Below, one piece after another: positions 1-8,425 of a DNA stretch of 64,000 nucleotides. The stretch comes from Nibricoccus sp. (GTDB taxonomy: Bacteria > Verrucomicrobiota > Verrucomicrobiia > Opitutales > Opitutaceae), in NCBI GenBank assembly GCA_047602425.1, contig JASGHG010000001.1, positions 2,432,001 through 2,496,000 of the forward strand, in the 5' to 3' direction. Position numbers and translations under genes: made by a program. The notes under the pieces were generated by a model. The model saw only the letters and a list, made by a program, of their open reading frames with translations. It was not told where the DNA came from and did not search any database. Positions within the stretch are counted from its first letter, which is position 1. Every line of letters starts with the position of its first letter.

Positions 1-2
1 CT

Positions 3-689
3 TCCATCGGAATTTCCGATCTCCTCGACATCGTAGATACCGCCCTGGCGACGATCTCCCGTCGTTTGCCGGTTCATGTTGGCCGTGAAGACCTGGCCAC
101 CGTCGGCAAGCTCGCGCTCATATCCGCGCTGGGCCAGTGCAGTGGTTCGGTCAGCGAGGTTCGCGCTTACTGCTTCGTGCGGGTGCGCGGCGCGATTCTG
201 GACGAACTACGCCGCCTTGATCCGCTTTCGCGCCGCCGCCGTGAACAACTCACAGCGGTTGTTCGTGCCCAAGCCGAATTGAGCGCGCGCCTCGGCCGAG
301 CAGCCACGCGGGCTGAAATCGCGGTAGCGACCAAGCTTTCACTTTCGGAGGTTACCGCTGTGCAGCAAATGCTCGCGCAGGAATCGGAATTTTCTGAAAC
401 GGAAGTCGAATTGCTGCCCGACACGGAAGCATCATCGCCGGCCGAAACGATCGAGGCTGAGGATCTTCGCCTAAATCTGCGCGGTGCACTTCAGCGCCTT
501 AACAGCGCTCAAGCGGCCGTGCTTTACCGCTACTATTTCGACGAGGTCACGCTCGATGTGATTGCGGCCGAGATGGGCCTCTCGAAAGAGCGTGTTCGCC
601 AGATCCGCGACGCCGGTGAAAAAAAACTCCGTGCTGACTTCATCGTCCTGTCGATCTGGCAGTCACTCATTAACCACAGCCGGGATTAG
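3..689 (+). CDS. Sigma-70 family RNA polymerase sigma factor, FliA/WhiG-like (5'-truncated by window edge)
   Basis: Frame is open from position 3 (SIGISDLLDIV...). Region 2 motif RVRGAILDELRRLDPLSR, region 3 LGRAATRAEIA and region 4 HTH TLDVIAAEMGLSKERVRQI. Confidence 0.85.
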   Translation, partial: SIGISDLLDIVDTALATISRRLPVHVGREDLATVGKLALISALGQCSGSVSEVRAYCFVRVRGAILDELRRLDPLSRRRREQLTAVVRAQAELSARLGRAATRAEIAVATKLSLSEVTAVQQMLAQESEFSETEVELLPDTEASSPAETIEAEDLRLNLRGALQRLNSAQAAVLYRYYFDEVTLDVIAAEMGLSKERVRQIRDAGEKKLRADFIVLSIWQSLINHSRD

Positions 690-709
690 TCATCCCGGCT
701 GCTTTGCTC

Positions 710-1375
710 ATGCGCTTTTTGGACAAACACACAACTCGGGACAAACTGTTGCTCAGGCTTGAACGCGAGCGCAACCGACTTTGGCAGGCGCAGCGAGATG
801 CTCCGATTGTTCCGCTGGAACATCCATACCAACGTGGCTGGGTGAAGACGTTTCAACTTCGCGAGGATGTTTCACGTCGCCCGGACGCTGCAATTTTCCG
901 AACCATCCTGGCTGCCGTGAACCTGAAAGTTTTTTCCCGCAATCGAGAATTTCTAAATCCACGAGGAGAGGAAATCCTGCTGCGACCGAAGAAACTCAGA
1001 ATCGACCAGTGGAGAAAGCTGGCTTGGCCAGCCAGTCATCAGCGCTTCTTTGCTTTCGGGCATTGGCGAGCGGACGAAGAGGCATGGATGCCTTTGCGGC
1101 TCCGCCGGCTGCTGCCCGGCTACAAGCTGGTGCATAATTGGTGGTTAGTAGAAGATGCACAGCCGCATTTGATCACTCACCAACGCGTGGAGCTTCCAAC
1201 AGTCCGCAAGCGCCTCTCAGAAATTGAGGCATACCTGAGCCACCGGCAGGGACACGAGCGACTCAACAAGCTTCATGGCCGGAGTGATTGGTGGCGCAGA
1301 TTTGTGGAATCGCGCGCCGATATCCGGACAAATTACTTCATCGAAGAGCAGCTTTCCCGCGAAATAGAAACATGA
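710..1375 (+). CDS. Conserved hypothetical protein, basic and Trp/Arg-rich
   Basis: 221-aa ORF from ATG 710, 20 nt after the sigma stop. The motif PLEHPYQRGW...LREDV resembles hypothetical proteins I recall near rtcB in Bacteroidota (not verified). Confidence 0.7.
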   Translation: MRFLDKHTTRDKLLLRLERERNRLWQAQRDAPIVPLEHPYQRGWVKTFQLREDVSRRPDAAIFRTILAAVNLKVFSRNREFLNPRGEEILLRPKKLRIDQWRKLAWPASHQRFFAFGHWRADEEAWMPLRLRRLLPGYKLVHNWWLVEDAQPHLITHQRVELPTVRKRLSEIEAYLSHRQGHERLNKLHGRSDWWRRFVESRADIRTNYFIEEQLSREIET

Positions 1376-1473: not shown

Positions 1474-1962
1474 ATGAAAACGATCACCCTTTCACACGCC
1501 CTGAAACACAAAAACCGTCTGGCCGGCGACGTCGCACGGCTGCGCGAAATCGTGCAACGCGAAAACTCACGCAAGGAATCGCAGCCGGCTCGCGCCGACG
1601 TGCGGGTTGCCTTCGACGATAGCGTCGCCCGTTCCCGCGAACTGGCTGCTTTCAAAGGTGCAATCGCCTCCGCAAATGCAGGCGTGCTTTCCGAGGATCG
1701 TGGTATCTATGCCAAGTTGAATCTTCAGGCCGAGCTGCGTGGCCTGATCGTCTTTATCAAGGGGCTCAACACCAAGGAGGGTGAAGAGGTTGAGCGCGTC
1801 GGCTTCATGAGTCGCGACGATGCCATCCGCACGGTCTACGTTGCAACGATTACCCGCGAGGAAGTTGATCGTCTGGTTGTCGCCTATCAGAATGAAATCG
1901 AACGTTTGCAGGATGAAATCGACGAGTTCAACGCAACAACGCGCATTCCTTTGACCAACTAG
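1474..1962 (+). CDS. DIP1984-like helical/coiled-coil protein (162 aa)
   Basis: ATG 1474 follows an A-rich leader. N-terminal TLSHALKHKNRL, central KGAIASAN and C-terminal EIERLQDEIDEFNATTRI follow the DIP1984-family pattern as I recall it. Confidence 0.6.
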   Translation: MKTITLSHALKHKNRLAGDVARLREIVQRENSRKESQPARADVRVAFDDSVARSRELAAFKGAIASANAGVLSEDRGIYAKLNLQAELRGLIVFIKGLNTKEGEEVERVGFMSRDDAIRTVYVATITREEVDRLVVAYQNEIERLQDEIDEFNATTRIPLTN

Positions 1963-1967
1963 TCCTT

Positions 1968-2169
1968 TCGGGCCCGGCTTGAACACGTACGACTGACTAC
2001 AGGCATTCTGGCATCCAACGATGCCATTGCGGTCTGATAAACCGTAACAACGATATCGACCTGATTGTTAACAGTCATCGTTCAACCTCTCAAAATACAA
2101 AAATTACCGCTAAAGGTTAAAACTTTTGCCACCTGCTTCAATTGTACGCGTTTCAGGCCGGTGTCCCGA
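1968..2169 (+). ncRNA. Candidate structured non-coding RNA between the DIP1984-like gene and rtcB
   Basis: 1968-1992 pairs with 2142-2169 (about 24 bp, including 2 G-U pairs, 3 bulges and 1 mismatch). Internal hairpins at 2009-2026 and 2027-2047. A-rich tract with ~7-nt periodicity at 2068-2123. Confidence 0.65.
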
Positions 2170-2185: not shown

Positions 2186-3721
2186 ATGAATATGGAAATC
2201 AAAGCCCGTGATCTCGTTGCTGCCGGTTGGCATGAAGGCCGCCGCCTAGGCGCTGCTCTCCGCCGCGCACGTGATCTCGAATCCACTGGAATTTCTCGCG
2301 CCGAAGTGCTCGTTCAACTCGAACAAGAATTTCCAAAGCAACTCGCCGTGATTCTTCCGCGCTATGAGCCGGCTCCGCTGGCCGAAGCGATCGAAGCTAC
2401 CACACCGGAAGAAGCGACCAACGTTACCTCGGCCCGTCAGCGCATGCTCGAACTTCTCCACGTCCCGGTGGTGAAGCGCGGAAGCATCATGCCGGACGCC
2501 TGCCCGTCGGGTGGTGGTCGTGCCACGATTCCGGTTGGGGGAGCCATCGAAGTCGAGAATGCCATCATTCCCGGCGCTCACTCGGCTGATATCTGCTGCT
2601 CGATGTACGCATCCTTTTTCCCGGCCAACCATCCGGTGGGCGAAATGATGGATCATCTTCAGAAGACCACGCACTTCGGTGCGGGTGGTCGTGCACGCGG
2701 TCAGCAATGGACCACGTCGGTGGTGGAAGAGCCGGTTTGGGATAACCCTTTCCTTTCCGGACTGCGTAGCCGGGCCCAGGATTTCATGGGAACCCAAGGC
2801 GACGGAAATCATTTCGCCTATGTCGGACGTATCCAGTTTACGGATGCGCAACGCGCTGCGCTTGAATCCGCCGGCTATACCGAACTCACCGAATGGATCG
2901 TGCGCCGCGACGGTGAATTCAACGTCCTCGTGACTCACCACGGTTCGCGTGGTCTCGGTGCTGATGTGTACAAACGCGGCCAGAAAGCTGCCCGCAAATG
3001 GTGTGACGAAAACGCCAAAGATATTCCCGACGCAGCTGTCTGGTTGCCGTACGATTCTCCGGATGGCTCCGCTTACTGGGACGCGTTGCAGTACGTATCT
3101 CGCTGGACGCGTGAAAACCACGCCCAGATCCATGCCGCCTTCCTGCGTCGCTTGGGTCAGCGTGGCCTCGTGCAAATCGGCAACGAGCACAACTTTGTTT
3201 GGAAACGCGGAGATTCTTTCTTCCACGGAAAGGGTGCTACGCCGGCGTGGAAAGACGCGCAGGGCCGTCCGCTGCTCGGAATTATTCCGCTTAACATGGC
3301 CCGTGAAATCCTCCTCGTACTTGGTTCGGACAACAACAACTACCTGTCGTTCTGTCCGCACGGCGCTGGTCGCAACCTGTCGCGCTCGGCCATGCTGCGT
3401 CCTTACAAAGACGTGGACGGTGAAATCGATCCGGCACTCGTGCAGAAGACCCTGGCCGAAACCACGGCCGGGCTTGATATCCGTTGGTTCAATGGCGCAC
3501 CGGATTTGTCCGAGTCTCCGCTCGGCTACAAAAACGCTACGCAGGTGAAGGCGCAGATCGACCGCTTTGGTTTGGCCACGGTGGTTGGCGAAATCCAACC
3601 GCGCGGTTGCATAATGGCCGGCGAAGCTCCGGAACCGCCATGGGCTCGTGCTCGCCGCGAAAAACGCGCTGCCCACAAAGCCATGCGCCGCGAGGGCGAT
3701 GTTGAAGTGGGTGAAGCCTAA
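2186..3721 (+). CDS. rtcB: RtcB family RNA ligase (3'-phosphate/5'-OH)
   Basis: Motifs MPDACP..IPVGG, SADICCS, GTQGDGNHF, THHGSRG, NEHNF, HGKGATPA, HGAGRNLSR and SESPLGYK. Confidence 0.93.
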   Translation: MNMEIKARDLVAAGWHEGRRLGAALRRARDLESTGISRAEVLVQLEQEFPKQLAVILPRYEPAPLAEAIEATTPEEATNVTSARQRMLELLHVPVVKRGSIMPDACPSGGGRATIPVGGAIEVENAIIPGAHSADICCSMYASFFPANHPVGEMMDHLQKTTHFGAGGRARGQQWTTSVVEEPVWDNPFLSGLRSRAQDFMGTQGDGNHFAYVGRIQFTDAQRAALESAGYTELTEWIVRRDGEFNVLVTHHGSRGLGADVYKRGQKAARKWCDENAKDIPDAAVWLPYDSPDGSAYWDALQYVSRWTRENHAQIHAAFLRRLGQRGLVQIGNEHNFVWKRGDSFFHGKGATPAWKDAQGRPLLGIIPLNMAREILLVLGSDNNNYLSFCPHGAGRNLSRSAMLRPYKDVDGEIDPALVQKTLAETTAGLDIRWFNGAPDLSESPLGYKNATQVKAQIDRFGLATVVGEIQPRGCIMAGEAPEPPWARARREKRAAHKAMRREGDVEVGEA

Positions 3722-7666: not shown

Positions 7667-7844
7667 TATCGTCAAGGCCCTTCTGGGCACGCGTGAAGGA
7701 ATCGGTGCCTGTGCCTCTTTGCAGGCATCGCCAGCTCCGCGCATGAGGAACACTCAATCGCCGTTTTCCAGATTCAAATGGGGGACTAGAGCACACACAA
7801 TAAAACTGTAGCCGTAAATCGGTGTTACAAACCGAGCTGTCCTC

Positions 7845-7915
7845 GTAGGGGCGCAGTCTTGCTGCGTCCTTTCTGAGGCGAAGCCAAACCGGGCGCAGCA
7901 AGACTGCGCCCCTAC
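7845..7915. repeat. GTAG-type REP-like inverted doublet
   Basis: GTAGGGGCGCAGTCTTGCTGCGTCC ... GGGCGCAGCAAGACTGCGCCCCTAC. The two 25-nt arms are reverse complements (1 mismatch), and each arm is itself a hairpin. Confidence 0.75.
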
Positions 7916-8425
7916 AGCCGGAGTTGTGCGGCTATGACATTTTTAAAAATGCTCTAAAGCTGAAGCCAAAATCGATGCCTACATTGGCCGCTCGGCTTCG
8001 ATTAATCGGGATTCTTCAATCGGTCGAAACAGGTCGCCAAAAATGGACTGCCCTTCGCTACGACTGGTCCAGACGAAATTTTATTTGTAGCATTTCAATT
8101 AATTGGATCTGCGTTCCCGCGTTTTGAATAGAAGCGAGTTGTAAGAGCGTGATCTTGCTGAAGCCGTACTCAACAGCCCCAATTCGGGTGCACCGGATTA
8201 CATGTCGGCCACAAATGCGCCACAATTTTGCCGTATTTGACCTAACCTACTCAAAGACAGTTTCTAATGGAATTTTATTCATTTTAAGGTGAAGAAGCTG
8301 TTGCAAGTCATTTGATAAATAATCCAACAGTGACTTTTTTAGTACGGCCTCTCATTGCAAGTTACTGTCTTAAAGTACGATGCCAATGAATTGCGCAAAT
8401 TGTGTGCAAAAACTGCTACAAATTG

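Follow-up and report, generated by a model that had tools for sequence, protein, structure and literature searches.

What is the folded segment of 202 nucleotides that separates the gene for a small helical protein from a gene for an RtcB-type RNA ligase, and to which of these two neighbors does it belong? This question is raised by a locus near the start of the 64,000-nucleotide stretch of Nibricoccus sp. DNA that we analysed as a whole (the window). A previous sequence-only reading had described an RNA whose juxtaposed ends would suit excision from the mRNA and possibly circularisation by the adjacent RtcB. Judged from the comparison of homologous loci, the element is a real and conserved structured RNA, uncatalogued in Rfam, which is tied to the DIP1984-like protein encoded in front of it. 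The locus is composed of the following features.

1 to 1375, plus strand: sigma-70-family (FliA/WhiG-like) gene and an ORF of 221 amino acids, end of a tRNA-array island
1373 to 1386, no strand assigned: palindromic operator-like site TGACT-N4-AGTCA, about 90 nt ahead of the DIP1984-like gene
1474 to 1962, plus strand: P0001, helical protein of 162 amino acids, remote DIP1984/DUF6847 relative and likely RNA partner
1968 to 2169, plus strand: structured RNA of 202 nt (z -6.53, 30 distinct homologues, covariation)
2186 to 3721, plus strand: RtcB-family RNA ligase of 511 amino acids (Pfam RtcB, E 2e-32), co-operonic neighbor and not an obligate partner

The element begins 5 nt past the stop codon of the 162-amino-acid ORF (1474-1962), and 16 nt lie between its end and the rtcB start (2186). 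The RtcB protein carries an N-terminal extension ahead of its ligase domain (2186-2350); family models start at about residue 80.

Fold and conservation of the element

Comparison of the folding energy with dinucleotide-shuffled sequence had been proposed as a check on the RNA. RNAfold gives -71.3 kcal/mol for positions 1968-2169 (z -6.53), and not one of 200 dinucleotide-shuffled controls was equally stable. Both arms and the two hairpins of the sequence-only reading are found where it had placed them. The arms 1968-1992 and 2142-2169 form 24 pairs in the RNAfold structure, including the G-U pairs 1979/2156 and 1991/2143, with three bulged U residues (2151, 2162, 2164) and A1985 opposite C2149, and the closing stem extends inward to about 2004/2131. 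The juxtaposition of the two ends is thereby supported as well. The hairpins did not fare alike: the one at 2009-2026 is strong, with pair probabilities of 0.85-1.0, and the one at 2027-2047 is weak, reaching 0.28-0.43 in the full-length fold. The element can be subdivided as follows.

1968 to 2004, plus strand: 5' strand of P1, the closing helix, with its inward continuation; 99% identity in the outer 10 pairs, which hardly vary
2009 to 2026, plus strand: hairpin 1; double changes in 3 of 6 pairs, 98.3% paired
2027 to 2047, plus strand: hairpin 2, variable in sequence and length; 48% identity, like neutral sites
2048 to 2128, plus strand: gap-free, sequence-conserved core; 85% identity, 0 gaps in 30 sequences
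2067 to 2123, plus strand: eight N-U-Y-A-N-N-N units, each with an A that is shared by 30 of 30 sequences
2131 to 2169, plus strand: 3' strand of P1; its bulged U residues 2162 and 2164 are invariant

The minus strand of 1968-2169 is also stable (z -6.23), and folding energy alone consequently does not choose the strand. The frequent G-U pairs that are kept across the homologues favor pairing at the RNA level on the plus strand, as had been argued from the two G-U pairs of the arms. The element is thus a conserved single-strand structure of the plus strand with juxtaposed ends, and most likely an RNA.

A search of species genomes with the DIP1984-like protein yielded 19 loci, among them 14 close ones with 77-86% identity. 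Directly behind the stop codon, 13 of these 14 possess the complete element and one (L016) its 5' half only. The cultured Geminisphaera colitermitum TAV2 carries the element twice (L006, L008). We aligned 30 distinct elements to a structure of 49 pairs; 96.4% of the alignment cells are paired, against 25-48% in slid controls. Double changes affect 13 of the 49 pairs (74 cells), a level reached in none of 500 shuffles, which overstates the significance since the 30 close homologues represent few clades and the counts are not independent. These double changes are located in the closing helix and in hairpin 1, and with them the alignment demonstrates a fold that is maintained by covariation. The inner part of P1 is 58% identical yet remains paired. 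At the position of hairpin 2, a hairpin of different sequence forms in 8 of 9 folded homologue fragments; in L009 this region folds otherwise. Helices predicted inside the core (2048-2128) show zero double changes, and we distrust them.

Searches of the window at the Rfam gathering score returned no match; on the element itself at E ≤ 10, the only Rfam hit was a chance snoRNA row (E 1.9). ARAGORN detected no tRNA in the window. Three further candidates were rejected: a sigma-70-like site at 2068-2096, which is at chance level; an antisense pairing of 10 nt with tRNA-Asn, which needs A2073, a C in 28 of the 30 homologues; and a read joint at 1806-2046 as evidence for splicing. The sequencing run behind this joint is probably DNA and contains only pieces from relatives; the joint fits a collinear diverged homologue.

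Partner gene and genomic setting

The profile of the DIP1984-like protein matches 8 of the 301 family genomes and none of the four that belong to the same genus. The RNA is present in the same eight genomes, strongly in seven and weakly in the eighth, where the covariance model confirms it, and it is always positioned just behind the gene. Six further RNA matches of 20-32 nt in the 301 genomes were not confirmed by this model. A pattern derived from the RNA only led to 17 metagenome loci, 16 of which carry the gene directly upstream (broken in L063), and the remaining one is cut by the end of its contig. Searches of viral contigs with the RNA pattern and with one distant DIP1984-like protein gave 0 matches each, and plasmids gave none with two proteins as queries.

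The relationship to rtcB is of a different kind. An rtcB gene follows the RNA in 11 of the 14 close loci of species genomes and in 13 of the 17 metagenome loci (it is absent in three, and one contig ends too early). The RNA is intact without rtcB in L005, L013 and L049, and in L054 and L056 an intact RNA is followed by a decayed rtcB start. Close rtcB relatives (rows with E < 1e-100) occur in 60 of the 301 family genomes; among 29 loci whose rtcB is 79-87% identical, four have both the gene and the RNA, and 25 have neither. In most distant relatives rtcB is not adjacent; RtcB or RtcA is encoded behind five distant loci. Collectively, these neighborhood counts establish a one-to-one link of the RNA to the DIP1984-like gene. 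The special tie to the adjacent RtcB is not supported, as the RNA is kept without rtcB and 25 of 29 close rtcB loci lack it.

With at most one mismatch, the palindrome TGACT-N4-AGTCA stands ahead of the gene in 13 of 14 related cassette loci and directly ahead of rtcB in 11 of the 25 loci that lack gene and RNA. The both-or-neither distribution and this shared site mark gene and RNA as one cassette, and the compared loci show that it is gained or lost as such between the operator-like site and rtcB. Five exact copies of the palindrome exist in the genome, four of them in two islands, and two of these copies are found ahead of tRNA arrays. The site at 1373-1386 is hence a candidate operator of an RNA-repair regulator.

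The cassette is situated at the end of a tRNA array together with genes for Ro60, HNH and RtcB. The DNA preceding the window carries a gene for a LysR regulator, 22 tRNA genes (ARAGORN), the TROVE/Ro60 gene and an HNH nuclease gene; 38 of the 84 tRNA genes of the genome belong to two islands and 46 are elsewhere. By analogy, this is likely a tRNA-rescue island that is induced by stress. RNA-repair or tRNA neighbors were present at 7 of 27 distant loci (RtcB at L025, L032, L033 and L034; RtcA at L024; Ro60 at L033; RlaP at L090; tRNAs at L025, L039 and L090). The other 20 have no such gene nearby (mostly 1.5 kb on each side), and the stress role may consequently be local.

Several observations concern the island as such. 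The 221-amino-acid ORF (704-1375) recurs between the sigma factor gene and rtcB in related islands and has no match in Pfam, NCBIfam, PADLOC or PHROGs. The tRNA array (L092:6987-13080, genome positions 2,424,987-2,431,080) contains extra tRNA-like units that are Rfam-only or unscored. At about 9830-10720 of L092, just ahead of the Ro60 gene, several units open with a repeated GGGTAGTGA-like motif; judged by this motif, they may be unrecognised Y RNAs.

The concern that the arms might occur genome-wide as MITE terminal repeats was examined and laid to rest. In the genome of 5.16 Mb, BLAST finds two copies of the element, both within one duplicated 12-kb island, and each 18-nt arm, with up to two mismatches allowed, occurs only at these two copies. 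With arms and element confined to a single segmental duplicate, and with no dispersed copies or arms, we reject a MITE or REP element. The duplicate islands (genome positions 2,386,500-2,397,130 and 2,423,100-2,435,715) are 86-97% identical. The upstream island, whose element copy lies 38.6 kb upstream, has 16 tRNAs, no TROVE gene and a frameshifted rtcB, and has kept the RNA. A segment of 1,349 nt that covers the DIP1984-like gene, the RNA and the rtcB start has a single base difference between the islands, a sequence likeness that suggests recent gene conversion. A true MITE-like repeat of 171 nt, whose ends are inverted repeats that enclose a long hairpin, is present at 7786-7956 of the window; it is unrelated to the structured RNA and has 39 BLAST matches in the genome, 26 of them of at least 140 nt.

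The seven-base register and the protein

The sequence-only reading had overlooked what, by sequence comparison, is the most conserved part of the element and a feature common across lineages: the core with its seven-base repeat. This core of 81 nt (2048-2128) is 85% identical, against 50% at the four-fold sites of the adjacent gene (14 loci). The invariant A residues of its eight units lie at 2070, 2077, 2084, 2092, 2099, 2106, 2113 and 2120, hence at a spacing of 7, 7, 8, 7, 7, 7 and 7, and they are constant in the 30 sequences even where the adjoining bases vary. In the pooled units, the positions outside the scoring show a pyrimidine at position 1 (72%) and an A at position 5 (66%). The unit, a palindrome in part, loosely resembles the consensus of two tRNA loops, the T loop and the anticodon loop, a likeness that serves as a lead only. 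Positions 2067-2072 form the self-complementary hexamer GUUAAC in 30 of 30 homologues, inside a longer near-palindrome, which could permit dimerisation of the RNA.

We assessed the register at 20 distant loci from other Verrucomicrobiota lineages, Armatimonadota and two huge phages; the covariance model of the close RNAs does not recognise the RNAs of these loci. At 14 of the 20 the unit score exceeded all 12 shuffles, compared with 3 of 100 other 3' regions of the genome and 1 of 19 stretches ahead of the genes at the distant loci. Likewise, the mean lag-7 z was 2.77 at the distant loci and 0.07 and 0.71 in the respective controls. Perfect unit scores were obtained for L031, L032, L033 and the phage locus L091, three of these four being related. 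Owing to the partial palindrome of the unit, the opposite strand passed the unit test at 9 of the 20 loci, so that periodicity alone is no proof of a reading at the RNA level. Among the classic DUF6847 loci, 2-3 of 7 passed. These comparisons show a seven-nucleotide register that is invariant here and recurs in distant lineages. It persists in Verrucomicrobiota, in Armatimonadota and in huge phages though the RNA sequences no longer align, and it suggests a widespread RNA-protein particle of fixed geometry near tRNA arrays and RNA-repair genes.

A stable fold, defined as z ≤ -3 plus at least 10 confident long-range pairs, was found behind 16 of 21 subfamily genes, one of them borderline. The corresponding counts are 5 of 60 for the controls and none of 7 for the classic DUF6847 loci. 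The long-range pair count alone was rejected as a discriminator, as 21 of the 60 controls reach at least 15. These tests on 28 loci omit the near-duplicates L019, L028, L083 and L085 and the fragments L036 and L038, and they retain the locus of the window as the only close homologue. For L039 the start of the region was shifted by 120 nt owing to an intervening short ORF. This lysine-rich ORF (L039:4460-4575) lies between the DIP1984-like gene and the RNA of a 595-kb phage (LR756511.1), and tRNA genes follow 2 kb beyond the pair. In L025, L027, L030, L031 and L032 the distant RNA is followed by its own terminator-like hairpin with a U run. Rfam detected nothing but tRNAs in the 20 distant loci and the two islands.

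P0001 matches the NCBIfam DIP1984 model (NF038048) with E 1.4e-4 and 22.1 bits against a cut-off of 70, and it has no Pfam match, PF20935 included; 27 of 127 aligned relatives match DUF6847 at E ≤ 0.01. These scores, under both curated cut-offs, place it in a remote subfamily of DIP1984/DUF6847. In the Atlas the nearest clusters are those of DIP1984 (score 0.95), and 890 representatives were found at E ≤ 0.001. The AlphaFold model has a pLDDT of 94.8. The top row of a Foldseek search of the PDB is the DIP1984 structure 3kdq, with a probability of 0.98 but with E 0.044, a TM-score of 0.41 and an rmsd of 17.7; 3kdq was the third row in a profile search. A wide structural search returned only generic helical bundles (best Z 8.8), and 3kdq was not among the best 50 listed. 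The basic residues K11, K13, R15, K61 and R89 are conserved, and neither a conserved histidine nor a known nuclease fold was found in the DIP1984-like family.

Self-association of P0001 is predicted by a four-copy model with a score of 0.61, the best of three controls having obtained 0.00; 20 of 30 solved homodimers attained the same mark, as did 1 of 23 single chains. In the four-copy runs at least 82% of the contacts agree, the pLDDT is at least 83, and the interface is a two-fold dimer only, neither a ring nor a filament. That the model passes may be due to the likeness to the solved 3kdq.

The classic DUF6847 genes (L086-L090, L034, L035) have a different conserved RNA behind them, with motifs of its own; in L090 the gene stands behind a tRNA array and ahead of the RlaP gene. 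Deinococcus radiodurans, used as a control genome, carries PF20935. The literature that we searched contained no link of DIP1984/DUF6847 to an RNA and no description of the present RNA; the RtcB-neighborhood survey by Burroughs and Aravind (2016), which lay outside its scope, could mention the protein family.

Possible function and known counterparts

The reading that we favor, at a probability of roughly 0.55, sees in the element a small RNA that binds several copies of the DIP1984-like protein via its eight seven-base units and forms with them a particle that is active under translation stress. The operator-like site would drive one transcript of gene, RNA and rtcB, along with the tRNA array, as in the L-arrays of cyanobacteria. 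The long closing helix would shield the ends of the RNA, which host nucleases would trim to a stable species, as with Y RNA, and the largely single-stranded core would be open to the protein. The latter, a predicted dimer or higher oligomer, would use its basic patch (K11, K13, R15, K61, R89) to read one U-Y-A per 7 nt; TRAP reads spaced triplets. The RNA might then store, shape or titrate the protein, and the latter would have unfolded or broken tRNA as further ligands. This is the weakest step of the model, and tRNA is considered because the unit resembles the 7-nt loop of tRNA.

The most serious rival, though an unlikely one, is a cis-acting switch in the 3' untranslated region, in which the protein would bind the array on its own mRNA and thereby control mRNA stability, termination or translation of the following rtcB, in the manner of TRAP attenuation. 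The invariable position of the RNA on the gene strand, a few bases past the stop codon and here 16 nt ahead of the rtcB start, speaks for such a switch, as does the binding of oligomers to repeated short sites, which is typical of cis regulators. At many loci, however, the downstream gene is unrelated or absent, several distant RNAs have their own terminator-like hairpin and U run, and in 11 of the 25 loci that lack the RNA the same rtcB comes immediately after the operator; an alternative fold involving the rtcB start was not seen.

Somewhat less probable still is an elaboration in which the RNA is an assembly template on which the protein would polymerise, one unit per seven bases, into a ring or a short nucleocapsid-like particle. 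The seven-base units would mimic tRNA loops, and the particle would accordingly serve, in bacteria as in huge phages, as a decoy for nucleases that cut tRNA or as a chaperone against them, with RtcB, where present, resealing or circularising the RNA.

Two further proposals, on a par with each other, appear more doubtful still. In the first, the pair would resemble a type III toxin-antitoxin system, with a free protein that is harmful and neutralised by its own repeat RNA. Type III systems consist of a toxin gene with tandem RNA repeats and a terminator upstream. The cassette is compact, has a patchy distribution that takes in 8 of the 301 family genomes and none of the four from the same genus, occurs in two huge phage genomes, and its gene and RNA are gained or lost jointly, all of which would suit this idea; but the RNA lies downstream and has 7-nt units instead of the longer upstream pseudoknot repeats of type III systems, PADLOC, PHROGs and Pfam give no toxin family match, and the protein has neither a conserved histidine nor a known nuclease fold. 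The second is the original proposal that the RNA is excised and circularised by the neighboring RtcB as a dedicated substrate. Its juxtaposed ends and its outer stem, 99% conserved and with two invariant bulged U residues, would suit an enzyme site, rtcB is the next gene at 11 of the 14 close loci of species genomes and at 13 of the 17 metagenome loci, RtcB or RtcA is encoded behind five distant ones, and this RtcB presumably retains its active-site motifs. Against it stand the intact RNAs without a functional neighboring rtcB (L005, L013, L049, L054, L056) and the 25 of 29 close rtcB loci that lack the RNA; moreover, the window contains no match to Rfam ribozymes that could make RtcB-type ends, and a hammerhead core was found in 0 of 30 homologues.

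Finally, a DNA-level element, be it a MITE or an array of 7-bp protein sites between inverted repeats, 7-bp arrays being known for some plasmid DNA-binding proteins, is very improbable, since the about equally stable minus strand and the partly palindromic unit are outweighed by a copy number of two within the 12-kb duplicate, frequent plus-strand G-U pairs, conserved bulges and internal hairpins, and a position and strand that are fixed relative to the gene.

For the favored particle of RNA and DIP1984-like protein, four known systems provide a frame of reference. The first is the DIP1984/DUF6847 family itself, which has had a crystal structure (PDB 3kdq) since 2009 without an assigned function and for which the present locus offers a candidate ligand. 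P0001 has the same size and helical fold class as 3kdq, and a closed structured region also lies behind the genes of classic members; the RNA model built from the close elements does not extend to classic or distant members, whose RNAs reach E 0.04 at best.

In TRAP and in CsrA/CsrB, an oligomeric protein binds repeated short RNA sites. Evenly spaced short motifs and a small protein, here predicted to be oligomeric, recall these systems; the fold is unrelated, the period is 7 nt, a long closing helix is present, and RNA and protein form one cassette. Eight invariant A residues at a spacing of 7 nt predict a precise and testable binding geometry.

The trn operon of Anabaena is a horizontally spread tRNA L-array with HNH and rtcB genes that is induced under translational stress (PMC8421152, PMC10272220). 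The present island likewise combines a long tRNA array with HNH and rtcB, and an operator-like site is shared by array and operon. Regulation of the L-arrays relies on direct repeats, whereas the site found here is a palindrome, and the accessible portions of the two L-array papers do not mention such an RNA or protein family (PMC8421152, PMC10272220).

Ro60 (Rsr) and its Y RNA or YrlA are encoded in rsr-yrlBA-rtcBA operons (PMC4201824, PMC7790460). The Y RNA corresponds to the element in that it is small, has paired ends and is encoded in an RtcB operon next to the protein that it partners, and a TROVE/Ro60 gene is present in the element's own island. The marks of a Y RNA are nevertheless lacking. 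There is no YrlA match in Rfam for the window and the islands (none relevant at E ≤ 10), the Ro60 motif GNCGAAN0-1G, placed near the 5' end in PMC4201824, occurs in 1 of 30 element homologues, the consensus fold has no D arm, and 8 of 30 sequences contain a T-loop-like string. A Y RNA is expected within about 4 kb of a Ro60 gene on its own strand; the distance from the end of the TROVE gene to the window copy is 3.7 kb, and the duplicate island has no such gene. The element sits behind a DIP1984-like gene. Despite these differences, the analogy makes Ro60-Y RNA the functionally nearest system, and, in the portions of the literature that we consulted, it is the only partner pair described beside tRNA arrays and RNA-repair genes, a setting in which the DIP1984-like protein and its RNA would constitute a second one.
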